Source: an uncultured bacterium (GTDB lineage: Bacteria; Patescibacteriota; Microgenomatia; Levybacterales; UBA12049). Taken from it: 64,000 nt of DNA. The notes beneath the pieces are model-generated. The model searched no databases. It saw only the letters and a list, made by a program, of their open reading frames with translations, and was not told where the DNA came from. The position numbers and the translations under genes are program-made. This document shows, in pieces, positions 293 to 52,943 of this stretch. The DNA is taken from NCBI GenBank assembly GCA_963826535.1, contig CAWGXL010000011.1, positions 128,809-192,808 of the forward strand, given 5' to 3'. The number at the start of each line of letters is the position of its first letter. The stretch's first letter is position 1.

Positions 293-411
293 TTGTCATT
301 CCGAGCGTAGTCGAGGAATCTCACACCGCAGATCTGTTAAAACAAATTAGTGGTATGAGATCCCTCCACTGCTCCCGATTAAATCGGGATTGGTCGGGAT
401 GACAATCTTGT
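293..411. mobile_element. MITE-like palindromic element, copy 1 (subfamily A)
   Basis: Terminal inverted repeats TTGTCATTCCGA / TCGGGATGACAA. Internal perfect hairpin TCCCGATTAAATCGGGA. Intergenic; related copies at 38697, 46585 and 47357. Confidence 0.5.
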
Positions 412-8631: not shown

Positions 8632-9036
8632 TTATTGAGGTAAACCCAAATGCTTTTCAATTTTTGTAACTCGTCTATCCAGCTTAGTATCACCCTCATC
8701 ATAATTTCTGGCAATAATATCAACAGTTTTTCTAAGCCAGTGCAGATCTTTTTTGATCAGCTTTAATTTTTTCTCAACAACCTTTTCAATTCTTGGCTCA
8801 AGACTACCATCAATTCTATTTATATCTTCCTTAACCCCATTTAAATCTTTTCTAACACTACTTATATCTTCTTTAACACTACTTATATCTTCTTTAATAG
8901 GCTTGAGTTTTTCTTCAATAACAGAATCAATCCCCTTAATATCCTCCTTAACAGGTTTAAGTTTAGCTTCAACCACGGAGTCAATCTCCTCGTGCATGAT
9001 GGATCTTATTTCTGTTAAATCATTTTTCGTCAACAT
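8632..9036 (-). CDS. coiled-coil repeat protein
   Basis: Repeated 'IEEKLKPIKEDI / SSVKEDISSV / NGVKEDINRI' heptad-like units. Contains a perfect 21-bp in-frame tandem duplication. Confidence 0.5.
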   Translation of the reverse strand: MLTKNDLTEIRSIMHEEIDSVVEAKLKPVKEDIKGIDSVIEEKLKPIKEDISSVKEDISSVRKDLNGVKEDINRIDGSLEPRIEKVVEKKLKLIKKDLHWLRKTVDIIARNYDEGDTKLDRRVTKIEKHLGLPQ

Positions 9037-11213: not shown

Positions 11214-12293
11214 TTATATTTTCACTAACTTTTCGCAGAATTGTGCTGCCTTGAGCATATCTGAAATAAGAACATATTCCCGAGATGTATGTGCGTCATA
11301 GTCGCCTATACCCACACAAACTGACTCGATGCCTTGTGCATGAAAGATGTTAACATCTGTTCCACCGCCCATTGATTCCAACTTCGCAGTGAGTCCCATT
11401 TGCTTCAGCACTTTTTTCACGTGTTGTATAACACGATGGTTTTCTTCAAAAAGATAGGGGTTAAATACTCTTTCTATTTTAAGTTCAATTTGTGTTTCAG
11501 GATGTCTTTGCATGACTGCGTTAAATACCTTATCAAAATGGAGAGAGTGTTTTTCCAGTTTCTTAAGATCACGACTGCGAATTTCTGCTTTGAAATGAGC
11601 ACGTTCAGGTACGGCATTACGAGCGCTTCCGCCTTCTATGAGCCCGACGTTGGCAGTCGTTTCATGATCAATCCGCCCGACTTCAAGCTTCGAGATTATC
11701 TCCGCAACTATTTTTATTGCCGAATATCCTTTTTCAGGTTCCACACCGGCATGTGCTCCCCTTCCAATGATTGTGACATCAATACTATTATAACCCGGAG
11801 CGGAATTAACGATGGTGTTAACACTATTAAGTCCATCAAAGGTCACCCCTTGCTTGGCTGTTAATTTACTATAGTCAAGATTCACCGCCCCAAGTAGACC
11901 AATTTCTTCGCTCAGTGTAAAAACAACTTCAATAGGCAGATGTTTGTGCTTTTCTTCTTTTAAAGAGGTAAGCGCTTCTAATATTTCCGCAACCCCGGCT
12001 TTTGCATCTCCGCCAAGAATTGTCCGGCCATCAGATGTAATTTTATCGTCCCGTATAATAGGCTTGATGCCCTTTCCCGGCTCAACAGTATCAAGGTGAG
12101 AATTAAGCATGAATGAATCGCCCACTCCTTTAAATTTGGCAATGATATTTCCATACGAATCAAGTTCTATACTTGCTCCAAGCACTTTTAATCTTCTGAT
12201 TACTTCCTTAACTATCATCTGTTCGTCACCGGATGGACTATCGATTTTTACGAGGTCGATAAATGTCTGCACAAGCCGATCTTTACGTATCAT
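11214..12293 (-). CDS. M20/M42-family metallopeptidase (PepT-like)
   Basis: 'NSHLDTV', 'ILGGDAKAG' and 'SEEIGLLGA' match metal-ligand blocks of M20 peptidases. Confidence 0.6.
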   Translation of the reverse strand: MIRKDRLVQTFIDLVKIDSPSGDEQMIVKEVIRRLKVLGASIELDSYGNIIAKFKGVGDSFMLNSHLDTVEPGKGIKPIIRDDKITSDGRTILGGDAKAGVAEILEALTSLKEEKHKHLPIEVVFTLSEEIGLLGAVNLDYSKLTAKQGVTFDGLNSVNTIVNSAPGYNSIDVTIIGRGAHAGVEPEKGYSAIKIVAEIISKLEVGRIDHETTANVGLIEGGSARNAVPERAHFKAEIRSRDLKKLEKHSLHFDKVFNAVMQRHPETQIELKIERVFNPYLFEENHRVIQHVKKVLKQMGLTAKLESMGGGTDVNIFHAQGIESVCVGIGDYDAHTSREYVLISDMLKAAQFCEKLVKI

Positions 12294-12351: not shown

Positions 12352-13011
12352 TTAATTTTTGTTTCCCGCCAATTGATTGGCAAGTTTATCTGCGCGCGTA
12401 TTGTTTACGTCGCCTGAGTGTCCAATCACCTTTTCAAAATACACTTTTAAATTATAATGCTTAATTAGCGCCTCAATTTTTTGAAAAATTTCTATGTTTT
12501 GTTTAATTTGATTGCTTGGTTTCTTTATATTATTAATTGTAATTTGACTATCCGAATAAATTTTTACTTTTTGGTATTGATTTTTAGCTGCCCAATCTAG
12601 TGCATGAAAAATAGCCAATCCCTCAGCAACATTATTGGTTTGCTTAGTGCCCGGTACCAGTCCTGCTTTTTCGATTACACCAGCAACAAAAGCCCAAGCA
12701 GCCCTAGCATTATGTTGCCCGTTAAAAACACAAGCGCCGTCAGTCCATATCTCAATGTCATACTTATTCCTGTCATTCTGAGGTGTAACAGAAGAATCCT
12801 CTTCAAATAGAGAACGAGATCCTTCGACAAGCTCAGGATGACTCACTACGTTCGTCACTTTAAACTTGTCGTCATGATAAATTTTGTGACAGTAGGGACA
12901 AAAATAATATGCAGTGTAATAATATGGTTGTTTTAACTGCGACGGTTTTTTTTGTGTCTTGCGCTGGATTAACTTACTTCCACAGGTTCTACATCTTTTC
13001 TGCTCTGACAT
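12352..13011 (-). CDS. rnhA: ribonuclease HI with N-terminal zinc-ribbon
   Basis: 'IEIWTDGAC', 'YSDSQ' and 'GHSGDVNNTRADKLA' catalytic DEDD/His blocks. N-terminal CxxC...CxxC. Confidence 0.85.
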   Translation of the reverse strand: MSEQKRCRTCGSKLIQRKTQKKPSQLKQPYYYTAYYFCPYCHKIYHDDKFKVTNVVSHPELVEGSRSLFEEDSSVTPQNDRNKYDIEIWTDGACVFNGQHNARAAWAFVAGVIEKAGLVPGTKQTNNVAEGLAIFHALDWAAKNQYQKVKIYSDSQITINNIKKPSNQIKQNIEIFQKIEALIKHYNLKVYFEKVIGHSGDVNNTRADKLANQLAGNKN

Positions 13012-13089: not shown

Positions 13090-14562
13090 TTAAGATGACT
13101 TTTTTTGTACTTGGAGATGTTTAGTAAGTATTAAGCGCGCAGTGTCGTCAAGGTCAGAACGTTCTTGTGCCTCTAATAGAATTTCTTTTGATCGTTTAGA
13201 GTCCTCGAGTTGCGATATTGCAAGAATTGCTTCTATTTGAACCTCAGCAGATTTTTCTTCAAGAAGTGTCGTTCTTATAGCCTCAATTGCTTCTTTATTA
13301 CTCATGTAAAACAGCGACGCGACAGCTACTGCTCGAACGTGTTTACTTTCGTCTGTTTTCATTGAATCGATTAAGACTGCCGTAATAGCAGGGTGGGGAT
13401 GTGTCGCTAGCTCTTTAATAGCGGCTACACGTATGGAAACTCTGTTGTTTTTCAAATCTATATACAACTTTGCTAGTTCAGGGACTGATTTTATTTCTGA
13501 TTCTTTGTTGAATTTTTCTGCAACCTTGTTAATAAACTTTTCGATTGAATTCCGTATGTTTTCATCATTATTTTCTTCAATAGTGTTTATTTCTGCCATG
13601 AACTCTTTCAGGGCGGTGCCTCCCAGTGTTAATAGTTCCGAGAAGCCGATATCCAATGGATGGGTTCTTTCCGGCGTATTAAGAATGTTGATATTTTTGC
13701 TTGCGTTTGGAGAAACGATAATAACGCGCATATTTTTCAGTCGATTTGTAATCTGAGCTTTGATATGTAGGTCTCTCAAGCTATTGCCGGCAATGATTAA
13801 GATCTTTGTTTCCCTCAAAACATCACCAAATAAGGAGCTCAGTTGAGAATAAGGATCTCCAAAAATCTCTTTTTCTAGAGTAGGAATAATCATAAGAGGC
13901 TTCAGAACTTGGTCGTTTCTCGTTAAGTGAAAATCATAAGCAGGTAATGAGTATCCACGATCAAGCCGGTGAAATACTTTACCAGTGGCATCTACATACC
14001 AGTTCACAGATCCATGCAATTTTATTATGCGTAGTGCTTCGGCAAAAGTACCCTCCCAATTTGCTACCGTCTGACTACCTTCAGTTTTGAAACCATCAGA
14101 GTAAGGTAGCTTCAGCTGTTCGCTAACATATTCAAGAATTCTATCATAGTTTGTTGTGAAAACGTGCATTGGTGCTACCTTACTTAATTCTAGAATTATC
14201 TTGAACTCTCTTTGAGCTTTTGGTCTGTCAAATCGTTCACATGTGTCCACAATAAAAGCATCAAGGTAGCCCCGGAGCTGACGTGCTGTCTCTAACTTTT
14301 TCTTTATGTGATCTGTTTCAGTTACTCCAAGTAATACCATGCCCTCCGTTCCGGTTGTGATAACTTGTAAATCTGCCAAAAGGGTTTCGAGATCATTATC
14401 TCTTTTGCCACCAGATATTTCTAACTCCTTAAGAAATGCAAAGCATCCCGGATGCCGACTTTCAAGATAATCTCTAAATTGCGCATAGAATCCAGCCATC
14501 ATTGGTACACTATATGGCGACGATGCTCCTGCTCCAAGGAGAAAGGATATTGGATAGGTCAT
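13090..14562 (-). CDS. SIR2_2-family (putative NADase) protein with C-terminal HEAT/PBS-lyase-like repeats
   Basis: 'FLLGAGAS', 'VFTTNYDRILE' and 'KLHGSVNW' are SIR2_2 hallmarks. The C-terminus has repeated 'VR.AA...L' HEAT units. The start overlaps the stop of the upstream ATPase (ATGA). Confidence 0.8.
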   Translation of the reverse strand: MTYPISFLLGAGASSPYSVPMMAGFYAQFRDYLESRHPGCFAFLKELEISGGKRDNDLETLLADLQVITTGTEGMVLLGVTETDHIKKKLETARQLRGYLDAFIVDTCERFDRPKAQREFKIILELSKVAPMHVFTTNYDRILEYVSEQLKLPYSDGFKTEGSQTVANWEGTFAEALRIIKLHGSVNWYVDATGKVFHRLDRGYSLPAYDFHLTRNDQVLKPLMIIPTLEKEIFGDPYSQLSSLFGDVLRETKILIIAGNSLRDLHIKAQITNRLKNMRVIIVSPNASKNINILNTPERTHPLDIGFSELLTLGGTALKEFMAEINTIEENNDENIRNSIEKFINKVAEKFNKESEIKSVPELAKLYIDLKNNRVSIRVAAIKELATHPHPAITAVLIDSMKTDESKHVRAVAVASLFYMSNKEAIEAIRTTLLEEKSAEVQIEAILAISQLEDSKRSKEILLEAQERSDLDDTARLILTKHLQVQKKSS

Positions 14563-16436
14563 TCTTTCCTCTCCTCCTTTTTTATCAGTTCGTCAATCTT
14601 ATTTTTCAAGAATTCCTTCAAGAGAGGACTAGTTGAGAGCTGTGCTTTTTCATGAAGTTCCGGGTCAGTCAGCAACTTTTTGATCTTCCTCTGAGCAGAT
14701 ACAGTCCCATAAGCACTATCAAGATCTAGGTAGACCTGAAGTAATTGTCTTCTGACAGGATTACCTGCTACTTCAGGAATTATTTTCAGAATTTCTTGGA
14801 CTTCTTTGCTCGAAAAATTCATCAATTTTCCTCCTACATCTCTTATGACACGATCAGTGGTGTCTGGAAGATCAACCAGCTTAAACTCCTGTTCAAGTCC
14901 TAATAGCAGACTGAATAATTCGCTTTCCGCTATTGGTTCGAGCATAACTTCTTCCAAAGTTGCTTCATCAACGTGAATCCATCTGTATGAGTTTTTGCTA
15001 CATTCTTGGGATAAAATATCAGCTTCATGAAAGTTGACATTCTGTGTTTGTCCGTTGATCTCTACAGGAAAAGTTCTGTTCTGACATCGAATCACGAGTT
15101 CTCCTCTTAAGAGGAGATGTGCTATTCTTATATCTCTTGTTTGGACAGATTCTGTAATTTGTGCTGAACTGCTGCCTTGTTGAATCGATTGTTGGAATTG
15201 CTTCACTGCTTCTTCCTCTCTTACATAGTATAATCTTTTCGTATCCTTTGCCTTATCGATAATTGCTTTGACTGATAATCTTTTGTCAACTCCCAACTCC
15301 CTTACTCGTATCACTTTGGGTAACAAATTCTCGAGTTTTTGCAGGATATCGTTATCAAGGATTGATTTGGTTTGTCCGTAGTAAAGAATTGCAACATATT
15401 TGTCTATTTGGCCCATATCTACGCCTTTTGGGTCGTCTTCCAACGACTTTTCTATTTCACCAATTTTTTTTCTGACCAGTTGATTATAAAAACTTAGAAG
15501 ACGTTTCCCCAATTCCTGCCACTTATCATCGGGCTGGAATCCATCTCTACTCATCAAGATATTCAGTCCTCCAGGAAGAACGTCAATTTCGCCAATATAT
15601 CCTACTGCATGTTGGGAAATAAGAGTCTTATCATTATCTAATACCAGAAAGCCACCATTGCAAATGGTAAGGCTGCTCTGGATTGTCGCGCCGGCACTCT
15701 CCCATGTGTTATCAAGTGCAAGGAATCCTGATATTACGGAGGAATCTTTCACTTCAATTGCTCCTTCGATATTCGCGCCTTTCCATTTTTCAGTAACCTT
15801 CTTTTTCTCTTGCGTATCTACTTTTTCTATTTCGATAAACGATGCGTGTCTAGCATATTGTTCTACAGCATCAGAAACTTGATTGGCATTCATTGCCCCG
15901 CTAGGCTTCAATAAGAGCTTTACGGAAGTTCCACGGAGAGTGGGAATATCGGTAATTTCCACAAACTTTTCTTTTGGACCCATAACAGCAAATGCGATTC
16001 CAGTTTCTTCCTCCATTTTAGTTTTTACCTCAACTCTGTCAGCAACTCCAAAGCAACTCAAAATCCCGATCCCGAATTTTCCGATTTGGAAGTTTTTATT
16101 TCCAGACTGTTTAAGAAGTGCTTGTATATGAGGGACATCTTGTTTGGATGCTCCGACTGTAGCAAAGCTTTTTTGCAAGGATTCTTTGTTCATTCCTAGA
16201 CCATCATCGGTAATCTCAACCCAGTTTTCAGCAACAGAATAGCGTACTAAAATATTCGGAGAATAAGATGGATACTTGATTTTTTGAAGGCTGCATGCAT
16301 CCTCGGCATTTTGTAAAAGCTCCCGTATTGCAGTATATGCGGATTTATAGAGGTTATTTCCAATCAGGAGATCAAAGACATTATCATGGAGAGTAAAACG
16401 CATATCTTTCATAATATTATGGGAGGCTAGTTTCAT
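14559..16436 (-). CDS. Hsp90/HtpG-like GHKL ATPase (divergent)
   Basis: Bergerat-fold motifs 'IRELLQNAEDA', 'ITDDGLGM' and 'IGKFGIGILSCF'. Further HtpG-like blocks ('GTSVKLLLKP', 'ASFIEIEK', 'LNILMSRD'). 625 aa, about HtpG length. Confidence 0.7.
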   Translation of the reverse strand: MKLASHNIMKDMRFTLHDNVFDLLIGNNLYKSAYTAIRELLQNAEDACSLQKIKYPSYSPNILVRYSVAENWVEITDDGLGMNKESLQKSFATVGASKQDVPHIQALLKQSGNKNFQIGKFGIGILSCFGVADRVEVKTKMEEETGIAFAVMGPKEKFVEITDIPTLRGTSVKLLLKPSGAMNANQVSDAVEQYARHASFIEIEKVDTQEKKKVTEKWKGANIEGAIEVKDSSVISGFLALDNTWESAGATIQSSLTICNGGFLVLDNDKTLISQHAVGYIGEIDVLPGGLNILMSRDGFQPDDKWQELGKRLLSFYNQLVRKKIGEIEKSLEDDPKGVDMGQIDKYVAILYYGQTKSILDNDILQKLENLLPKVIRVRELGVDKRLSVKAIIDKAKDTKRLYYVREEEAVKQFQQSIQQGSSSAQITESVQTRDIRIAHLLLRGELVIRCQNRTFPVEINGQTQNVNFHEADILSQECSKNSYRWIHVDEATLEEVMLEPIAESELFSLLLGLEQEFKLVDLPDTTDRVIRDVGGKLMNFSSKEVQEILKIIPEVAGNPVRRQLLQVYLDLDSAYGTVSAQRKIKKLLTDPELHEKAQLSTSPLLKEFLKNKIDELIKKEERKE

Positions 16437-17665: not shown

Positions 17666-18004
17666 TCATGCCTTCTGAGATCTATGTAACCAGTTGTTAC
17701 TTATTTTATCGTTATGGCAAAATATAAGATTCTCTTTTTCTATGTGGCTCATCTGCTTTATTTCCTCTTCCCGCTGACATGCCAATTCATTAGTTAAGTA
17801 TTTTTCATAAATCATAAGCTTCACGGGCCGCCTTGCGCGAGTGTATTTAGCACCATTTACCAGTTTACCATTGTGCTGCAGTAATCTTTTCGGTAAGTCA
17901 ATCGTTTTGCCTGTATAATATGTCCCATCAGCACACCTCACAATATAAACAAAATATTTTTTAGAAACGAAGTCAGACTGACTCATATTATTATGGTAAA
18001 GCAA
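17666..18004 (-). CDS. GIY-YIG nuclease-family protein (UPF0213/YhbQ-like)
   Basis: '[28 protein letters not shown]' (GIY...YIG) and 'AKYTRARRP'. Confidence 0.75.
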
Positions 18005-21032: not shown

Positions 21033-21105
21033 CCTGCGCCTGACATTTGTACGGTCAAGTAGTCGACGGTGGATTGTTGGGTCGCTATATATTTATTGTA
21101 ACATT
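21033..21105. repeat. degenerate partial copy of the tfoX 5' end and upstream region (direct repeat with 24757-24828)
   Basis: About 85% identity over 72 bp to 24757-24828. Start codon mutated (ATG to ATA on the minus strand); retains only the 'ATQQSTVDYLTVQMSGAG' remnant. Confidence 0.55.
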
Positions 21106-24491: not shown

Positions 24492-24860
24492 CTACTTTTT
24501 CGGTTTTGGTAGTGGGAGTTCTGCGGCGGTTTTGGCGATAAGTTGTGAAAGCAGGTCTCGGTCTTCCCAATAATCACCACTGATATAAAAATAGGGTTTG
24601 GCTCCAGGATAAGGCGGAGTTTCTTCTACGGAGCCGATTATATCTCTACCGGCTTTGGTTGGTTTGACGAAAAGCATCTCATCACAAACCAGAGCGACAA
24701 CTTTGTCATTGCAATAGATTGCGTATTCGCCAAACATCTTCCGAGATCTGATAACTCCTGCTCCTGACATCTGTTCGGTCAAATAATCGACCGTGGATTG
24801 TTTGGTTGCCATATTTTTAGTGTAACATAAACGATTTCTTCGATTTTTTTCGGAATTCAT
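24492..24860 (-). CDS. tfoX: TfoX/Sxy N-terminal-domain protein (true start probably ATG at 24812)
   Basis: 'MFGEYAIYCNDKVVALVCDEMLFVKP' matches the TfoX_N domain. The conserved upstream block at 24813-24828 suggests translation starts at 'MATKQSTV'. Confidence 0.65.
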   Translation of the reverse strand: MNSEKNRRNRLCYTKNMATKQSTVDYLTEQMSGAGVIRSRKMFGEYAIYCNDKVVALVCDEMLFVKPTKAGRDIIGSVEETPPYPGAKPYFYISGDYWEDRDLLSQLIAKTAAELPLPKPKK

Positions 24861-37406: not shown

Positions 37407-38666
37407 ATGCTAGATATTAAATTCATCCGCGAAAATCCGGAGTTAGTTCAGAAAGCGTCCAGAGATAAAAAGGTTGAGGTTGATATCAATCATCTGCTTG
37501 AAATCGATAAAAAGAAACAACAACTGCAAAAATCAGTACAGTCGCTGCAACAAGAACGGAATGCGTTTGCGAAAAATATTAAGGGCAAACCTACAAATGA
37601 GCAAGTAGAAGAAGGCAAAAAAATAAAAGTAAAGCTTGAGAAAGAAGAGAATGCATTTAATGCTGTAAATGAGGAACTGGATGCAATATTGCGCAAGATC
37701 CCCAACGTTGCAAAGTCTGATGTAAAAGTTGGAAAAGACGAGTCAGAGAATGAAGTGTTGCGCAAATATAAAGAGCCAACTAAATTTACATTTAAACCAA
37801 AAGACCATTTGGAAATTGGAGAAGCGTTAGATATTATTAATGTAAAGACAGCAGCGAAAGTTTCAGGTACTCGCTTTGGCTATTTAAAAAATGAAGGGGT
37901 ACTATTGGAGTTTGCACTCAAACAGCTCGCTTTTGACACTCTTATCCCACAAGGATTCATTCCGGTTCTGCCGCCGGTTCTAGTAAAAAAAGAAATTATG
38001 GAAGGATTGGGCTATACGGAATTGGGAGAAGACGCAAATATATTTTTTCTCGAAAAAGATAATTTATACCTTGTTGGCACATCGGAGCAAGCTCTGGTGC
38101 CAATGCACAAAGATGAGGTGCTAAAAAAAGAAGAATTACCTAAGCGCTATGTTGGCTTTTCTACTTCTTTCCGCCGTGAAGCCGGCAGCTATGGGAAAGA
38201 TACGCGCGGTATTTTTCGTGTCCATCAATTTGACAAAGTCGAAATGGTTTCCTTTGTTGCAGAAGGCGATGATGATAGGGAACATGAATATATGCTGGCA
38301 ATAGAGGAAAAGTTTTTCCAAATGCTTGAAATCCCCTATCAAGTTGTGAGAATTTGTACAGGCGATTTAGGATTTAATGCTGCAAGAAAATATGATATTG
38401 AAGCGTGGATTCCTTCACAAAATAAATATCGCGAAGTTACTTCTACTTCAACAGTGACAGACTTTCAATCCAGAAGATTAAATATGCGCTATCAAGATGG
38501 TAATGAAAAGAAATATATGCAAGTGCTCAATGGCACAGCATTTTCCATGAACCGGCCGATTATTGCTATTCTTGAGAATTATCAACAAGAAGACGGGAGT
38601 GTCGTGATTCCGGAAGTGTTAAGAAAATATATCGGTAAAGATATTATAAAACCACATAAAACTTAA
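37407..38666 (+). CDS. serS: seryl-tRNA synthetase
   Basis: 'MLDIKFIRENPE' N-terminal coiled-coil arm and class II motifs ('FRRE', 'GLGYTELGED'). Confidence 0.9.
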   Translation: MLDIKFIRENPELVQKASRDKKVEVDINHLLEIDKKKQQLQKSVQSLQQERNAFAKNIKGKPTNEQVEEGKKIKVKLEKEENAFNAVNEELDAILRKIPNVAKSDVKVGKDESENEVLRKYKEPTKFTFKPKDHLEIGEALDIINVKTAAKVSGTRFGYLKNEGVLLEFALKQLAFDTLIPQGFIPVLPPVLVKKEIMEGLGYTELGEDANIFFLEKDNLYLVGTSEQALVPMHKDEVLKKEELPKRYVGFSTSFRREAGSYGKDTRGIFRVHQFDKVEMVSFVAEGDDDREHEYMLAIEEKFFQMLEIPYQVVRICTGDLGFNAARKYDIEAWIPSQNKYREVTSTSTVTDFQSRRLNMRYQDGNEKKYMQVLNGTAFSMNRPIIAILENYQQEDGSVVIPEVLRKYIGKDIIKPHKT

Positions 38667-38696
38667 ACAATTAGTATGATTTACTCATATTATGCA

Positions 38697-38810
38697 GTTG
38701 TCATTCCCGCGAACGCGGGAATCCAGGAGGTAAAATAATTTTTTACATTTTATCTTTATAAGGAAGAGTTATTTATATCTTCTGGATTCCCCTGTCCAGG
38801 GGAATGACAA
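38697..38810. mobile_element. MITE-like palindromic element, copy 2 (subfamily B)
   Basis: Perfect 11-bp TIRs TTGTCATTCCC / GGGAATGACAA. Each end folds into a perfect hairpin (ATTCCCGCGaaCGCGGGAAT; ATTCCCCTGtcCAGGGGAAT). Shares flanking motif TTTACTCAT.TTA.GCA with copy 4. Confidence 0.55.
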
Positions 38811-38843
38811 ATTATTTTTGCGTAACATGAGCAAGTAAGAAAT

Positions 38844-39755
38844 ATGATTTTTCTTGAAAAATACGAACTCCTGAAAAAATCTATTCCTGTGGCGGCGCTT
38901 GTGCTTGGTAATTCGGTTGACTGTGAATATTCAGATTTTATAACTTTATGTAAGAATTGCTACTATTGTTTTGATGCGTCTTATATAGAAGACAGTATGT
39001 ATGTTGTCCTGGGAGCTTTTAATAAAAATCTTGTGGACTGTCTTGCCATGGCTGACTCTGAGAAATGTTATGGATGCGTAGAGTCTACTAAATGCCACAG
39101 TTCTACTTATTTATTACATTGTAATAATTGTACCGATTGTCATTTTTCATCGTATTTAAATGCTTGCTCTGATTGTTTTGGTTGTGTTGGTCTTAACCAT
39201 AAGAAGTATTGTATCTTCAACAAGCAATACTCCAAAGTAGAATACTTTAAGAAAATAGAAGAGCTGAAAAGTGAGAAACCAGAAAATCTTCTTGAGCAAA
39301 TGCGTAAACTCAAAAAACAAATACCACATCCTGCAACTTATCAATCTAATAGCGAAAATTGTCCGTTTGGAAATTACGTATATAATTCTAATAACTGTTA
39401 TTGGATCTTTAATACATTTTACTTTGAAAATTGCGGATATGCATATTACTCAGCAATTGCAAAGAACTGTTGGGATATGTATTGTTCAGGTGGAAGCAAA
39501 GAAGAAAACGGCATGACTGAAAAATGTTACGAGATGGTTGCTTCAAGGCCAAGTAACTATGAGTGCGCATATCAATTTATATCCCAATACTGTACGAATT
39601 GCTATTATGGCATTGATCTTAGAAATTGCTCCGACTGTTTTGGCTGCGTAGGACTGACCAATAAAAAATACTGTATTTTAAATAACCAATTGACCAAAGA
39701 ACGGTATGAAAATGCTGTTAAAGAAATCAAAAAAGAGCTTGGGTGGAAAGTTTAA
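38844..39755 (+). CDS. cysteine-rich repeat protein (about 32 Cys, internal duplication), paralog 1
   Basis: Repeated CxxC pairs. Each half ends 'NC[ST]DCFGCVGL..KKYCI.N.Q' followed by '...IKKELGW'. 303 aa. Confidence 0.6.
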   Translation: MIFLEKYELLKKSIPVAALVLGNSVDCEYSDFITLCKNCYYCFDASYIEDSMYVVLGAFNKNLVDCLAMADSEKCYGCVESTKCHSSTYLLHCNNCTDCHFSSYLNACSDCFGCVGLNHKKYCIFNKQYSKVEYFKKIEELKSEKPENLLEQMRKLKKQIPHPATYQSNSENCPFGNYVYNSNNCYWIFNTFYFENCGYAYYSAIAKNCWDMYCSGGSKEENGMTEKCYEMVASRPSNYECAYQFISQYCTNCYYGIDLRNCSDCFGCVGLTNKKYCILNNQLTKERYENAVKEIKKELGWKV

Positions 39756-39812: not shown

Positions 39813-40721
39813 ATGACCTTCTTTGATAAATTTGAACTCCTGAAAAAATCCATTCCTGTTCCGGCGGTGACGATTGTAGATACTGTGGATTGTGAATATG
39901 TAGATGGCGTCTATCTAAGCAAAAATTGTTACTTTTGTTTCGTTTGCTTTGATCTTGAAGACGGTGCTTATAACACACTAGGATTCTATTGTAAAAAACT
40001 TGTAGATTGTGACGCAGTGGATGCGTCAGAGAAATGCTATGAAAGCATAAATTCTTCTAAATGTTACAATTCTACATATCTAATAGATTGTAATAGCTGT
40101 ACCGATTGTCATTTTTCAACATTTTTGATTTCTTGCACTGATTGTTTTGGATGTGTTGGATTAACTCATAAAAAATATTGTATCTTTAACAAACAGTTCT
40201 CCAAAGGAGAATACTTTAAGAGTGTAGAAGAATTAAAAAAAGAGAAGCCGGAAAAGATCCTGGCCAAAATGTTTAAACTGAAACAAACCATACCCCATCC
40301 TGCCAGCCAACAGTTTAACAATGAAAATTGTCCATATGGAGATTATATAATTGGCTCAAAGAACATGTATTGGAGTTTTAATAGTTATTATGGTGAAAAC
40401 TCCGGATATACATATGTTACAGGACTTATAAAAAACTGCTGGGATATATTATTGGGAGGGGGAAATCGAACTAAAAAAACTTATTCTGAGCGATGCTATG
40501 AACTTTCGTATTCAAACCATTGTTATAACTCCGCGTTTTTACAAGATTGTTTTGATTGCACCAATTGTTCTTATAATACATACCTAAGAAACTGTTCGGA
40601 TTGTTTTGGTTGTGTCGGGTTAACAAACAAAAAATACTGCATATTTAATAATCAGCTTACAAAAGAGCAGTATGGAAAAACCGTTAAAGTGATAAAAAAA
40701 GAGCTTGGGTGGAATTATTAG
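39813..40721 (+). CDS. cysteine-rich repeat protein, paralog 2 (tandem duplicate of 38844-39755)
   Basis: Same architecture and motifs as paralog 1 ('CTDCFGCVGLTHKKYCIFNKQ', 'CSDCFGCVGLTNKKYCIFNNQLTKEQY...IKKELGWNY'). 302 aa. Confidence 0.6.
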   Translation: MTFFDKFELLKKSIPVPAVTIVDTVDCEYVDGVYLSKNCYFCFVCFDLEDGAYNTLGFYCKKLVDCDAVDASEKCYESINSSKCYNSTYLIDCNSCTDCHFSTFLISCTDCFGCVGLTHKKYCIFNKQFSKGEYFKSVEELKKEKPEKILAKMFKLKQTIPHPASQQFNNENCPYGDYIIGSKNMYWSFNSYYGENSGYTYVTGLIKNCWDILLGGGNRTKKTYSERCYELSYSNHCYNSAFLQDCFDCTNCSYNTYLRNCSDCFGCVGLTNKKYCIFNNQLTKEQYGKTVKVIKKELGWNY

Positions 40722-42113
40722 TTATTAAAATGAGCAGCAAGCAAAAATTACAATCTATTAATCCTTCAAACTATCAAGCTCTAGGAACAGTTGATATTTC
40801 AACAGCTCAAGAGATTGAAGGAAAAGTTAAGCTTGCAAGAAGCGCGCAAAAGAAATGGGCTGATTTGGGTATTGCCAATAGAGTATCGGTTTTGAAAAAT
40901 GCTTTTGAAGATTTTAAAAAACAAAAAGAAATGTTTATTCTATTGCAGTCAAGAGAGATGGGAATGCCCGTTAACGAATCTCTTATTGATTTTAATTCAA
41001 CCATTGATTATGCAAATTGGAATTTTGAAAATGCAGAAAAGTATTTAAGGCCTGAAACCACTTTTGAAAATGAGCGCGAAATCCACCAAGTTTTTCATGA
41101 ACCCATCGGCGTTTCGGCAGCTATTGTTCCTTGGAATTTTCCTTTCGCAAATTTTGTATGGGGCACTCTTCAAAGTTTAATCGCCGGCAATACAGTTGTT
41201 TTCAAACATTCCGAAGGAATGTCCGTTATGTGGAAAATTCATAGATGAGATTTTTACTAAGCACTTACCCAAAGGAGTTTTTAATGAGGTGTATGGAGGC
41301 GGAGAAGTTGGAAATTCACTAGTTAATCAAAACATTAATATGATTGCTTTTACGGGGAGCACTAAGACCGGAAAGAAGATATATGAGATAGCAGGAAAGA
41401 AATTCATAAAAGCAGTAATGGAGTTAGGTGGATCTGCGCCTGGCGTAGTATTTGAGGATGCCGATCTTGATTTAGCTGTTGGGAATATCTGCTTCAATAG
41501 GTTACTTAATCAGGGGCAATGTTGCGATGGGTTAAAACGCCTTATCGTGCATGAAAGTATATTTGATGAAGTTGTGAAAAAAGTTGCTACTACTTTTTCA
41601 GCTAAAAAGGTAGGAAACGCTACAGACAAGCATACTGAAGTCGGCCCACTTGTTGCGAAAAGACAACTTGAATTGCTTATTTCTCAGGTTGAAGACGCAA
41701 AGACAAAAGGCGCAAAAGTGATTACGGGTGGCAATTCACTTGAAGACAAACTAGGCGGCGCGTTTTTTGAGCCAACAGTATTAACAGGTATTACAAACGA
41801 CATGCGGGTCTGGAATGAAGAAGTGTTTGGTCCGGTTTTGCCAATTGTAAAATTTAAAACCGAACAAGAAGCAATTGAGCTTGCCAATCAGACGGTTTAT
41901 GGCTTAGGTTCGTATGTGTTTACAAACGATAAAGATAAAGCAGAGAGAGTAACAAGCGCGATTGAATCCGGCATGGTGAGCGTCAATGGCACAAATTATA
42001 TTATGCCGTTTAATCCATTTGGAGGCTACAAAAATTCCGGAATTGGAAGAGAACATGGTAGATATGGGTTTGACGTAGTGACGCAGATAAAGATTATTGC
42101 TAAAAATAAATAA
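40709..42113 (+). pseudogene. aldehyde dehydrogenase family, interrupted by +1 frameshift near 41215
   Basis: Two overlapping ORFs (40709-41248 and 41196-42113) together span a full ALDH ('GNTVVFKHSE' | 'ECPLCGKF...', catalytic 'GQCCDG', 'ELGGSAP'). One extra base in 'CCGAAGGAATG'. Confidence 0.7.
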
Positions 42114-46369: not shown

Positions 46370-46584
46370 GCATCACCGCCCCTACTGAACCACTTGCTTT
46401 TAGTACATGAGCGTAAGCGGCATTGGAAGAAGTAAAAAGGATAAATACTAACAAAAATGAAGCTAAGATATGTATCATAAACCTTACCTAATAAAGATAT
46501 TCTACTGGATTTGGGCTGTAAAGTCAGCTGGTAATGCTGTGCATCCGGCTATGGTAACTGTTCACAAGTCTAACATGAAATTGT

Positions 46585-46659
46585 CATCGCGATCCCGATT
46601 TAATCGGGAGTGGCGATCTTTAAAGATTGCTTCGCTACGCTCGCAATGACAAAATCGTA
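46585..46659. mobile_element. MITE-like palindromic element, copy 3 (subfamily A, short, inverted relative to copy 1)
   Basis: TIRs TTGTCATCGCGA / TCGCAATGACAA. Hairpin TCCCGATTTAATCGGGA. The reverse complement aligns to copy 1 apart from an internal deletion of about 45 nt. Confidence 0.5.
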
Positions 46660-46722
46660 TCAGAACCGTGAACTGTTACCGGTTATGCAGGAGCTTGACT
46701 TTAAATATATATCTGGTGTATT

Positions 46723-47319: not shown

Positions 47320-47356
47320 GTGGTTTTATTTTACTCATGTTACGCAATATCTTCCT

Positions 47357-47423
47357 CGTCATTCCTGCGAAAGCAGGAATCTTTTTAATGAAATTTCTGG
47401 ATTCCCGCCTGCGCGGGAATGAC
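47357..47423. mobile_element. MITE-like palindromic element, copy 4 (subfamily B, short)
   Basis: TIRs CGTCATTCC / GGAATGACG. Hairpins ATTCCTGCGaaaGCAGGAAT and ATTCCCGCctgcGCGGGAAT. Same TTTACTCAT.TTA.GCA left flank as copy 2. Confidence 0.5.
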
Positions 47424-47439
47424 GGTGCGTAAAGTGATT

Positions 47440-49605: not shown

Positions 49606-49881
49606 ATGCAGACAGTTATACACATAAAAGCGGACAGAGAGGTTAAAGAGAATGCTATGAGTGCAGCAAAAGAGCTTGGACTTACATTAAGCGATGTCAT
49701 AAATGCGGCACTGCGAAATTTCATCAGAACAAGAGAGGTTATTTTTACTTCGCGGCCGCGTATGACGCCGGAGCTTGAAAAGTTACTGAACAAGGTTGAG
49801 TCTGATATTAAAAGGAAAAGAAACCTTTTCGGACCTTTTACAAACTCTGAGGAGATTGACAAATTTCTTGATTCTCGATGA
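49606..49881 (+). CDS. dinJ: type II antitoxin, DinJ/RelB family
   Basis: N-terminal ribbon-helix-helix-like 'VIHIKADREVKENAMSAAKELGLTLSDVINAAL'. 4-bp overlap with the downstream toxin. Confidence 0.65.
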   Translation: MQTVIHIKADREVKENAMSAAKELGLTLSDVINAALRNFIRTREVIFTSRPRMTPELEKLLNKVESDIKRKRNLFGPFTNSEEIDKFLDSR

Positions 49882-50135
49882 AAGTTTATCTTCATAAAAG
49901 TTTTTTTAAGGGCTATAAAAGGCTAAACAAATCACAACAAAATAAATTTAAAGAAAGAAAAAATCTGTTTCTCCTAGACGAATATAATCCAATTCTCAAT
50001 AATCATTCTCTTACTGGCCAGTACAAAGGATACAAAAGCATAAATGTGAGCGGGGACTTACGAGCGATATTTAAACAGAATAAAGAAATCGTGATTTTTG
50101 TAGCGGTTGGCTCTCATAGTAAATTGTATGGCTGA
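49878..50135 (+). CDS. yafQ: type II toxin, YafQ/RelE family mRNA interferase
   Basis: 'SLTGQYKGYKSINVSGDLRAIFKQNKEIVIFVAVGSHSKLY' is the RelE/YafQ C-terminal signature. Confidence 0.65.
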   Translation: MKVYLHKSFFKGYKRLNKSQQNKFKERKNLFLLDEYNPILNNHSLTGQYKGYKSINVSGDLRAIFKQNKEIVIFVAVGSHSKLYG

Positions 50136-50189: not shown

Positions 50190-52943
50190 ATGCTCAAATA
50201 CTTCTCAAAATTCTTAGATTCCAATATCCGGGAAATTAATCGCTTCAAGCCTGTGGTTGCGGAAATAAACGCATTGGAGGAAAAAGTAAAAAAATTAAAG
50301 GACAAAGACTTTGCGAAAAAAACGCAGGAGTTAAAGCAACGAGTTGCAGATGGAGAAAAGCTAAATCAAGTTCTTCCCGAAGCATTTGCGCTTGCCCGCG
50401 AGGCATCACGACGCGCAAGCGGTCTGCGTCACTTTGATGTTCAGCTTATGGCAGCAATGACACTCGCGCAGGGAAAAATCGCAGAACAGAAAACGGGTGA
50501 GGGGAAAACGCTCTCTGCTGTTCCTGCCTTATACTTACATAGCTTGACCGGACGCGGAGTACACTTGGTTACGGTGAATGATTATCTTGCCCGCCGCGAT
50601 GCAGGCTGGATGGGACCAATTTTCAATCTGCTTGGCGTTTCCGTATCCTCCATTATCAACAACCAGTCATTTATTTTTGATACAACCCACACAGTAGAAG
50701 ACACAAATGATTTCCGTCTGCGACATCTCAAACCTGTGGATCGTAAGCAAGCATATGCGGCTGATGTAACTTATGGCATTAACTCGGAATTCGGTTTTGA
50801 TTATCTGCGTGATAATATGGCACCTGACCTCAACAGCGTTGTGCAACGAGGATATTATTACGCGATCGTTGACGAGGTTGATTCTGTACTAATAGATGAG
50901 GCGAGGACTCCGCACATTATTTCCGCCCCTGATGAAGCTCCGTCTCAGCGGTATTATGAATATGCTAAGGTAGTTGATAAGTTGACTTCTGTTCTTGATT
51001 ATAAAATCGACGAAAAATTACGCACCACACATCTGACTGATCACGGTATTGCTAAAATTGAGAAACTATATGGCATTACAGACATTTACGAAAAAGATTT
51101 TGACACAATCTACCATTTAGAGGCGGCACTCAAAGCCCGTGCGCTTTTCCATAAAGAGAAAGATTATATTGTGAAAGACGGACAGGTAATTTTAGTTGAC
51201 GAATTTACAGGAAGGCTTATGGAGGGCAGAAGACTCTCAGAAGGAATTCATCAAGCAATTGAAGCCAAAGAAGGAGTCGCGATTCAGCGCGAATCCAAGA
51301 CACTGGCTACGGTTTCACTACAGAATTACTTCCGCATGTACGAAAATCTCGCAGGTATGACCGGCACGGCGCTTACGGAAGCCGAGGAGTTTCGTAAGAT
51401 ATATAAGCTAGATGTCATAGTTATTCCAACTCATGTTAATGTAACGCGTAAGGATGCACGGGATGCGGTTTACAAGACAGTCAATGCCAAATTTACAGCA
51501 GTTGTTTCCGAAATTGAAAGGGCGCATAAAGCGGGACAGCCAATTTTGGTCGGTACTACATCTATAGATAAAAACGAAATTATTTCGCAAATGCTAAAAA
51601 GAAAAGGCATAAAACACGAACTCCTCAATGCCAAAAATCATCTTAAAGAAGCACAGATCATCTCCGACGCAGGAAAAAAAGACGCAGTCACTATAGCAAC
51701 CAACATGGCGGGACGCGGTGTTGATATAGTGCTCGGCGGAGATATGCCCAAGCATAAAGACGGCAGGCCTAAGACCGAAACTCCGGAGTATAAAGCATGG
51801 GAGAAAGGCCACAAAGCAGTTGTAGATCGCGGCGGTCTATATGTCATTGGCACCGAGCGTCATGAATCGCGGCGCATTGATAATCAATTACGCGGACGTT
51901 CGGGGCGGCAAGGGGATCCCGGGGATTCCCGTTTTTTTGTCGCGTTAAATGATGATATTATGCGCCTGTTTGGCGGAGACCGGATCGCAGGAATTATGAC
52001 CAGATTTAACATGCCTGAAGATGTACCGCTTGAACATCCACTAGTTTCCAAATCCATTGAAAATGCCCAGGTAAAAGTGGAAGGATTTAATTTTGATAGC
52101 CGTAAACATCTCGTTCAATACGATGACGTACTTAATAAGCAGCGCGAAATTGTTTATAGGCTGCGACGAACGATCTTAGAAAAAGCAGCCACTGGGGACG
52201 CGACGCTCAAAGATGAGGTCCAAAAACGACTTTATCATGCCATCAAAACGTTCGTGGATGTATCTATCGCGCAATTAAATATTGAACCGGGGGCGATCAA
52301 TGAAAAAATTGTCGAGGATTTCACAACTATTATTCCTTTTGACGAAGCTTCCAAAAAGCAACTCGTTACCCAATTGCAACAAAGGCAACTACCAGAGGAA
52401 AAAACAGAATTCCTTACAAAAATAATCGATGATCTTTATATCAAACGCGAAGAACAGATCGGTAGTCCTCTCATGCGTCAAGTCGAAAAAATTGTCATGC
52501 TTTCGGTGCTGGATAATCTCTGGATGAACCATCTTGACGCAGTGGATAACCTCCGCCAGGGAATCGGACTTCGCGGTTATGCTCAGAAAGATCCATTGGT
52601 TGAATACAAAAACGAGGGCTATCGTATGTTCGAACAGCTTATGTGGGCAATTGACGATGAAATAGTCCACAGAATATTCAAAGTCCAAATCCAGGGGGAA
52701 CAACAGCTCCAACAACCACACGTCCACGTTCACGCAGTCACCAATACACCGGCAAGTGAAATTGGTGAGGATGCGAAAAGAGTGCAGGAAGTACAAAGAA
52801 ATCGCAGAACAGTAACTCAACCGGCAACCGCTGCAGCAATTGTCGGTTCAGCAGATCTTCAGAAAAAACTGGGGCGCAACGATCCTTGTCCATGCGGGTC
52901 AGGAAAAAAGTGGAAGAAGTGCCACTATCCAAATATTCCCTAG
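50190..52943 (+). CDS. secA: preprotein translocase ATPase SecA
   Basis: Walker A 'EQKTGEGKTL', DEAD-like 'VDEVDSVLIDEARTP', and C-terminal zinc finger 'CPCGSGKKWKKCH'. Confidence 0.95.
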   Translation: MLKYFSKFLDSNIREINRFKPVVAEINALEEKVKKLKDKDFAKKTQELKQRVADGEKLNQVLPEAFALAREASRRASGLRHFDVQLMAAMTLAQGKIAEQKTGEGKTLSAVPALYLHSLTGRGVHLVTVNDYLARRDAGWMGPIFNLLGVSVSSIINNQSFIFDTTHTVEDTNDFRLRHLKPVDRKQAYAADVTYGINSEFGFDYLRDNMAPDLNSVVQRGYYYAIVDEVDSVLIDEARTPHIISAPDEAPSQRYYEYAKVVDKLTSVLDYKIDEKLRTTHLTDHGIAKIEKLYGITDIYEKDFDTIYHLEAALKARALFHKEKDYIVKDGQVILVDEFTGRLMEGRRLSEGIHQAIEAKEGVAIQRESKTLATVSLQNYFRMYENLAGMTGTALTEAEEFRKIYKLDVIVIPTHVNVTRKDARDAVYKTVNAKFTAVVSEIERAHKAGQPILVGTTSIDKNEIISQMLKRKGIKHELLNAKNHLKEAQIISDAGKKDAVTIATNMAGRGVDIVLGGDMPKHKDGRPKTETPEYKAWEKGHKAVVDRGGLYVIGTERHESRRIDNQLRGRSGRQGDPGDSRFFVALNDDIMRLFGGDRIAGIMTRFNMPEDVPLEHPLVSKSIENAQVKVEGFNFDSRKHLVQYDDVLNKQREIVYRLRRTILEKAATGDATLKDEVQKRLYHAIKTFVDVSIAQLNIEPGAINEKIVEDFTTIIPFDEASKKQLVTQLQQRQLPEEKTEFLTKIIDDLYIKREEQIGSPLMRQVEKIVMLSVLDNLWMNHLDAVDNLRQGIGLRGYAQKDPLVEYKNEGYRMFEQLMWAIDDEIVHRIFKVQIQGEQQLQQPHVHVHAVTNTPASEIGEDAKRVQEVQRNRRTVTQPATAAAIVGSADLQKKLGRNDPCPCGSGKKWKKCHYPNIP

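Follow-up and report, generated by a model that had tools for sequence, protein, structure and literature searches.

The 64,000-nt stretch analysed here (contig CAWGXL010000011.1 of assembly GCA_963826535.1, positions 128,809–192,808; hereafter the window) contains four short palindromic elements, c1–c4, which an earlier note had taken for a family resembling miniature inverted-repeat transposable elements (MITEs). All four are present. We conclude that they are probably inverted doublets of hairpin repeats of the Ssn-related motif (SRM) type, the dRS3/NTS class, in a Patescibacteria (Levybacteria-like) genome. This kind of element has already been described and is widespread; what is new here is the host, and with it the extension of the dRS3/NTS/SRM class to a Patescibacteria genome. 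The assignment reveals no new mechanism. It provides a puzzling “MITE” family with a concrete, testable partner, an Ssn-type GIY-YIG nuclease acting on single-stranded DNA (ssDNA), in place of an unknown transposase.

The dRS3 repeat of Neisseria is a hairpin of the form ATTCCC-N8-GGGAAT. Initially called dRS3/NIME, the class was given a new definition, as NTS, in 2025, with about half of the dRS3 copies representing a longer, directional 28-nt NTS motif, CGTCATTCCCGCGMAVGCGGGAATCYRG (Chenal et al. 2025, PMC11893778). NTS-like SRMs were found across many bacterial phyla, where they flank ssnA, a single-domain GIY-YIG gene of about 94 aa (CDD cd10448), and Wolbachia is named as rich in SRMs and possessing an active Ssn (PMC11893778). 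The SsnA enzymes of Neisseria and Wolbachia bind the folded motif exclusively in ssDNA, and there on a single strand, cleave just upstream of it, and are inactive on RNA (PMC11893778). In N. meningitidis, SsnA lowers the integration of transforming DNA that bears NTS.

Identity and architecture of the repeats

The strongest sequence agreement is with the NTS consensus, which is matched at 28 of 28 positions by the arm at 47397–47424 (minus strand) and at 27 of 28 by the arm at 38699–38726 (plus strand). The published degenerate SRM pattern, HGTCWYN(0-2)YYVSBRHN(0-5)WNVSBRGN(0-2)RNCYNB, has two exact matches in the window against 0.105 expected, a number reached by 1 of 200 first-order Markov simulations. 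Further arms lie one (c2 right), two (c3 right and c4 left) and three (c1 left) substitutions away from it. The dRS3 form ATTCCC-N8-GGGAAT is found in three arms (c2 left, c2 right and c4 right) and not in c4 left (ATTCCT...AGGAAT), c1 left or c3 right. The arms are hairpin-forming inverted repeats of 20–50 nt with a directional, non-palindromic 5′ flank, which is how SRMs are delimited.

The four elements of the 64-kb window comprise eight arms, all intergenic and all arranged in outward-facing inverted pairs. (T/C)TGTCAT or CGTCAT opens each core and its reverse complement closes it, and on every one of the eight arms a (T/C)GTCAT lead-in is followed by a G+C-rich stem-loop of 5–8 bp. The inverted arms are 12–40 nt long and 75–92% complementary. 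With the arms facing outward, each DNA strand holds one recognisably oriented arm near the element end. The earlier note had called the elements GC-rich, and this is borne out for the arms (G+C 0.45–0.68 versus 0.37 for the window), whereas the c2 spacer is only 0.17.

Neither the family nor its hairpin is explained by chance. The terminal motif GTCATTCC occurs nine times in the window against 1.35 expected, a count reached in none of 100 shuffles, and five of the nine sites fall in the elements; the other four (5380, 16868, 54592 and 59818) lie in coding sequence, lack a hairpin and look like chance occurrences. An nhmmer profile built from six arms recovered those six and no other match in the window at E<1. 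The two arms with a nested hairpin were assigned by inspection and alignment (c1 right scored E=8.6; c3 left was not recovered), and no arms beyond these eight were found in the window. Single-strand folds of all four elements were more stable than those of shuffled sequences (z −4.6 to −5.5, 0 of 200 shuffles), with c1 at −26.3 kcal/mol (z −5.5), c3 at z −4.6 and c4 at z −4.8. When the six arms are compared, compensatory changes are seen in four of the hairpin's eight stem pairs. Their covariation score was reached by none of 500 shuffles, and controls in which the alignment was slid were 11–50% paired as against 90%. The arm hairpin is under selection.

Two subfamilies can be told apart, as the earlier note had proposed. 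In subfamily A, c1 and c3 share the 17-nt perfect hairpin TCCCGATTWAATCGGGA, nested in one arm only (right in c1, left in c3). The c1 core spans 293–405 (113 bp; 293–411 in the earlier note). Its left arm is TTGTCATTCCGAGCGTAGTCGAGGAATCTCAC (293–324), a long, imperfect palindrome occupies the centre (302–377), and its right arm (366–405, minus strand) holds the nested perfect hairpin TCCCGATTAAATCGGGA at 373–389. The c3 core spans 46581–46652 (72 bp; 46585–46659 in the earlier note) within a 128-bp palindrome at 46553–46680, whose 40-nt arms are 75% complementary. Its left arm (46581–46618) contains the nested hairpin TCCCGATTTAATCGGGA at 46593–46609, and its right arm is TTGTCATTGCGAGCGTAGCGAAGCAATCTT (46623–46652, minus strand). 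Alignment confirmed that c3 corresponds to an inverted c1 whose central part has been deleted. The 17-nt hairpin was also considered as a known module in its own right, but it turned up in 12 unrelated contexts with no GTCAT nearby and was set aside as a generic hairpin.

In subfamily B, c2 and c4 have the left flank TTTACTCATRTTAYGCA in common. The c2 core lies at 38698–38810 (113 bp), with the left arm TTGTCATTCCCGCGAACGCGGGAATCCAGG at 38698–38727 (plus strand), which is an exact SRM, and the right arm TTGTCATTCCCCTGGACAGGGGAATCCAGA at 38781–38810 (minus strand), which differs from the left by compensatory stem changes. An outer inverted flank, TTTACTCATATTATGCA (38680–38696) and TGCGTAACATGAGCAAG (38819–38835), brings the full extent of c2 to 38680–38838 (159 bp). 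The c4 core lies at 47357–47424 (68 bp). It consists of the left arm CGTCATTCCTGCGAAAGCAGGAATCTTTT (47357–47385, plus strand), downstream of hupE, and the right arm CGTCATTCCCGCGCAGGCGGGAATCCAG (47397–47424, minus strand), which is both the 28/28 NTS match and the second exact SRM. The full extent of c4 is 47330–47437, with the outer flank TTTACTCATGTTACGCA (47330–47346) and a partial inverted partner at 47426–47437. Compared with the earlier note, only small corrections of the coordinates were needed. In three elements the palindromy continues 17–28 nt past the termini, to 38680–38838 in c2, 46553–46680 in c3 and about 47335–47437 in c4.

An accessory island of about 11.5 kb (38667 to about 50150), inserted between serS (37407–38666) and secA (50190–52943), holds three of the four elements. 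The first feature after serS, at the left edge of the island, is c2, while c3 and c4 bracket hupE.

Doublets, ssn genes and a proposed mode of action

The same termini are found next to ssn genes elsewhere. When viral contigs were scanned with the arm pattern, more than 120 stretches matched, and in three of them a GIY-YIG open reading frame (ORF; Pfam PF01541) lies directly between or beside the arms. In one of these (L056, 936–1305), a 96-aa ssn ORF is enclosed by TTGTCATTCCCGCGAAGGCGGGAATCCAG and CTGGATCCCCGCTTTCGTGGGGATGACAA, termini identical to those of c2. The GIY-YIG proteins of the viral contigs were aligned into an Ssn profile, and a search with it gave 26 loci. A GTCAT-hairpin arm lies at most 250 nt away in 24 of them, and an outward-facing pair encloses the gene on both sides in 10, so that the published association between repeat and ssn (71% and 42%; PMC11893778) is reproduced independently. 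Ends of the form TTGTCAT...ATGACAA thus bracket a GIY-YIG gene of about 95 aa (ssn) in other genomes.

The gene-less arrangement seen in the window is also common. Across about 240 motif-bearing loci in viral contigs, neighbouring arms within 100 nt were oriented “+-” in 44 cases, “-+” in 22, “++” in 12 and “--” in 8 (pairs not de-duplicated). Outward-facing doublets of 65–111 bp without a gene were the commonest arrangement, in host DNA of 34–70% G+C. By these counts and this range of base composition, the window elements are ordinary members of a cosmopolitan doublet form. By analogy, the copies in the window may be regarded as gene-less versions of the arm–ssn–arm unit, as REPINs are to RAYT genes.

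The likeness to the published NTS/SRM–Ssn system (PMC11893778) goes beyond the 28-nt motif and its hairpin with a directional 5′ GTCAT lead-in. Here too, the copies are intergenic and concentrated near accessory genes, one of which (hupE) has an element on either side (c3 and c4), and identical termini bracket ssn in other genomes. The present case differs in its host, a 37% G+C member of Patescibacteria, a group unmentioned in the main text of that paper, in having all eight arms in outward-facing doublets, and in one subfamily with a second hairpin nested in one arm. With the dRS3/NIME elements of Neisseria the window elements share the ATTCCC-N8-GGGAAT core, a spacer of 20–100 bp between two inverted copies and an association with variable or acquired genes. 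In contrast, the dRS3 and NIME names were defined for Neisseria, the spacers here are AT-rich and of unrelated sequence, and nothing points to phage integration at these sites.

By analogy with the enzymes of Neisseria and Wolbachia, we propose that an arm would fold when its locus becomes single-stranded, whether in replication, in repair or in the uptake of outside DNA. A cognate Ssn would then bind just one of the two strands, at the hairpin and the adjoining 5′ flank, and nick the DNA a few nucleotides upstream. Such nicking would shorten incoming homologous ssDNA, leading to less replacement of the flanked genes, and might also drive the spread of the repeat. On the same analogy, this genome would encode, outside the window, an Ssn that cuts these arms, and the repeats would be mobile. 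They could act to limit recombination with incoming ssDNA or spread by an Ssn-dependent route.

Several observations weigh against the assignment to SRM doublets or limit what can be built on it. No cd10448-type ssn gene is present in the 64-kb window. The published SRM pattern is matched by only two of the eight arms, and the two arms with a nested hairpin, c1 right and c3 left, fit it at no small distance. For subfamily A, arm-specific patterns had no match in viral contigs, and there was no Rfam match. In the literature, SRM mobility and any role outside Neisseria are unproven, mobility being a hypothesis even in PMC11893778. Four copies, in the absence of close relatives, do not allow gain of the elements by transposition to be told from gain by horizontal transfer of the island.

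The only GIY-YIG gene of the window, a small single-domain ORF of 112 aa (17666–18004, minus strand), is probably not the cognate Ssn, since it is of the UPF0213/YhbQ type and has no adjoining arms; we set it aside with some reserve. Its closest matches are UPF0213 BH0048 (PDB 1zg2, E 1e-13) and EF2693 (5e-11). It scores 39 bits on the Ssn profile, as against 120–150 bits for true Ssn proteins, and no arms lie within 17 kb of it.

In a bolder version of this proposal, which we regard as doubtful, SRM doublets would form a REPIN-like, self-spreading, Ssn-driven unit that has crossed phyla and gates the replacement of accessory genes, and subfamily A would correspond to a second Ssn specificity. 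If this were true, a candidate-phyla genome of 37% G+C that keeps the Neisseria 28-mer unaltered would have to possess an active Ssn of matching specificity, and the repeats would gate which incoming ssDNA replaces accessory genes such as the hupE cassette. The nested hairpin of subfamily A would then mark an Ssn specificity that is as yet undescribed. Episymbionts of the host type are thought to rely on DNA uptake.

Alternative accounts of the elements

Among the alternatives, the one that survives best, though we consider it unlikely, is that the elements work at the level of RNA, as bidirectional terminators, as mRNA-stabilising hairpins or as small RNAs (sRNAs) like WsnRNA46 of Wolbachia and FtrB of Francisella. 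Their positions lend this some plausibility. As the earlier note had observed, two elements closely follow stop codons, c2 starting 31 nt past that of serS and c4 starting 37 nt past that of hupE. Moreover, c4 occupies the gap between the convergent hupE (plus strand) and a ferric-reductase-like gene (minus strand), and its left arm fits an intrinsic terminator, with an 8-bp stem followed by CTTTTTAATG (CTTTTTAAT). This is, however, the only one of the eight arms with a T-run, and the suggestion that the elements double as terminators fits that arm alone. In addition, c1 and c3 are positioned upstream of genes and not at their 3′ ends, and terminator-like sites are just as numerous in the region as expected from shuffling. 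As a secondary role, some arms may act as terminators (the c4 left arm) or be transcribed.

Similarity to the two sRNA families is more extensive. At gathering thresholds Rfam gave no match in the window. In E-value mode, c2 with its outer flanks (38678–38831) aligned end to end with the 151-nt WsnRNA46 model (RF02625) on both strands, at 36.5 and 35.3 bits (E 1e-4 in a 9.1-kb search; gathering score 65.3), and the left sides of c2 and c4 matched FtrB (RF02748) at 27–28 bits (gathering score 66). The WsnRNA46 alignment takes in the outer flank TTTAC...GCA, both GTCAT hairpin arms and the AT-rich spacer. The WsnRNA46 consensus is itself a doublet, in which an outer uuuaC..gCa flank, GuGuCau...GGgauCcaG and an A/U-rich spacer are followed by the mirror image. 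The matches to the two families show that the outer flank of subfamily B is part of the repeated unit. In the FtrB consensus, a small hairpin stands ahead of an NTS-type one, the order also seen at the left of c2 and c4, and GTCATTCCCGCGTAGGCGGGAATCTC is present both in that consensus and in the published FtrB Northern probe.

Both families have been studied as RNAs. FtrB is a verified 115-nt Francisella transcript, and WsnRNA-46 has been reported to act on Wolbachia murD and on host dynein. Deletion of ftrB, in turn, changed some transcript levels but had no growth, stress or virulence phenotype in Francisella. The scores here are about half of the gathering values, and c2 matches both strands equally, as a DNA palindrome would; Ssn, moreover, does not act on RNA (PMC11893778). 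Since the scores are below threshold, we do not file the elements under either family. The matches indicate instead that the published sRNAs WsnRNA46 and FtrB come from this class of multi-copy DNA repeat and appear to be transcribed members of it, a reading that bears on how those sRNAs are interpreted.

Comparison with related genomes also argues against an RNA-level role. SerS shares 70–82% identity with proteins that carry the names Candidatus Levybacteria, Levyibacteriota or Patescibacteria; the closest relatives by SerS reach at most 79% in one genome scan and one metagenome scan, and 82% in a protein search. Proteins identical to SerS and HupE of the window are recorded for the 894-kb source contig. 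The gene order MurJ, S20, SerS upstream is common to relatives. In seven of them serS is followed within 0.1–0.5 kb by secA or the mini-ORF that usually precedes it (the L280 contig ends before secA), and all seven lack the elements at this junction. Nor were arms found in about 170 kb from the closest retrieved relatives, which are too distant for a base-by-base alignment of insertion sites. The absence from the relatives' junctions indicates that the elements are not conserved structural RNAs at orthologous sites. The elements are a lineage-specific recent gain tied to accessory DNA.

Less probable still, and in our judgement very unlikely, is the classical MITE, a deletion derivative of an insertion sequence (IS), moved by a transposase that is encoded elsewhere, binds the GTCATTCC termini as terminal inverted repeats, and works by cut-and-paste or copy-and-paste. 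Inverted termini, small size (68–113 bp), the deletion-derivative pair c1/c3, the intergenic location and the absence from relatives would all suit it, and a longer gene-bearing unit with identical ends does exist in other genomes. The earlier note's description as non-autonomous derivatives is therefore fair as to architecture, but the gene of the long unit encodes the roughly 95-aa GIY-YIG nuclease, which cuts only ssDNA and is not a known transposase (PMC11893778). Pfam scans of about 55 window ORFs detected no transposase, integrase or RAYT, in agreement with that note as regards transposases. The inverted termini themselves are real, but rather than IS repeats bound by a transposase they are copies of the dRS3/NTS/SRM hairpin, a self-folding motif that elsewhere also occurs singly or in other orientations. 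Target-site duplications were looked for and flank none of the four copies (ATG/TTGTCAT..ATGACAA/TCT, CAG/../ATT, AAA/../AAT and CCT/CGTCAT..ATGACG/GTG, slashes marking the element ends; no direct repeat); instead, the inverted symmetry continues outward.

That the elements are REP/REPIN repeats mobilised by a RAYT (an IS200/IS605-like Y1 transposase) can hardly be right, for despite a similar size and doublet-of-hairpins architecture, and an analogy drawn by the Ssn authors themselves, the arm lead-in is GTCAT and not the REP GTAG, the window ORFs include no Y1_Tnp, and the genes bracketed by identical arms elsewhere are GIY-YIG and not HUH. REPIN–RAYT systems resemble the SRM–Ssn pair in their short hairpin repeats in inverted doublets, in a single-copy gene flanked by repeats and in an enzyme that acts on ssDNA hairpins. 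Ssn has the GIY-YIG fold and RAYT the HUH-Y1 fold, and the motifs differ, which makes REPIN–RAYT an analogue and not a relative.

The serS–secA island and other genes of the window

The island that holds c2, c3 and c4 contains tandem paralogous ORFs of 303 aa (38844–39755 and 39813–40721; about 70% nt identity) that have no Pfam match, and an aldehyde dehydrogenase gene split by a frameshift (40709–41248 and 41196–42113). It also encodes a methyltransferase, PKD and DUF1775 proteins, HupE, a ferric-reductase-like protein and, at 49606–50135, a RelB/YafQ toxin–antitoxin pair. The right junction of the island appears to lie inside the terminator that in relatives precedes the secA promoter. The idea of a hupE cassette was followed up and dropped: no HupE homologue exceeds 65% identity (the nearest are named Peregrinibacteria, Patescibacteria or DPANN), and the one set of loci checked had no arms.

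At the corresponding junction, four of the seven relatives, all Levybacteria-like, conserve a mini-ORF of 9–19 residues, almost all lysine (MAAKKKKKKK, MPAKKKAKAKKKK), between serS and secA (L280 2151–2183, L250 6260–6301, L281 5407–5466 and L124 about 11395–11425). Its ribosome-binding site, GGAGGTGA, is strong, and it comes with a promoter-like TTGACA box of its own and a clean terminator; it may encode a leader peptide or else a tiny basic protein, and it is absent from the window. In two other relatives the serS–secA spacer carries a mini-palindrome, CGTCATTCC..TTCAAATGACAA, also CGTCATTC(C)...TTCAAATGAC(A/T)A (L122 about 11300–11335, L123 11308–11335), which is absent from L121. It may be all that remains of a GTCAT-type doublet that collapsed at this junction. 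The metagenome-assembled genomes L122 and L123 are labelled “uncultured Gammaproteobacteria”, and their SerS groups with Levybacteria.

Elsewhere in the window, an ORF with a TfoX_N (competence-regulator) domain lies at 24492–24860 (minus strand), possibly of relevance given that transforming DNA is what Ssn/NTS acts on in Neisseria. At 21033–21104 there is a second copy, 85% identical, of the first 72 coding nucleotides of this ORF; the copy has lost the start codon, is followed by no long ORF and looks like a decayed TfoX_N paralogue. Adjoining ORFs with SIR2_2/HEAT-repeat (490 aa) and HATPase_c_3 (625 aa) domains, whose stop and start codons overlap, occupy 13090–16436 (minus strand) and may constitute an anti-phage defence pair; an RNase H-domain ORF lies at 12352–13011. 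Finally, three to four tandem 21-nt repeats at 8816–8899, within the ORF at 8632–9036 (minus strand), give rise to a 7-residue protein repeat.

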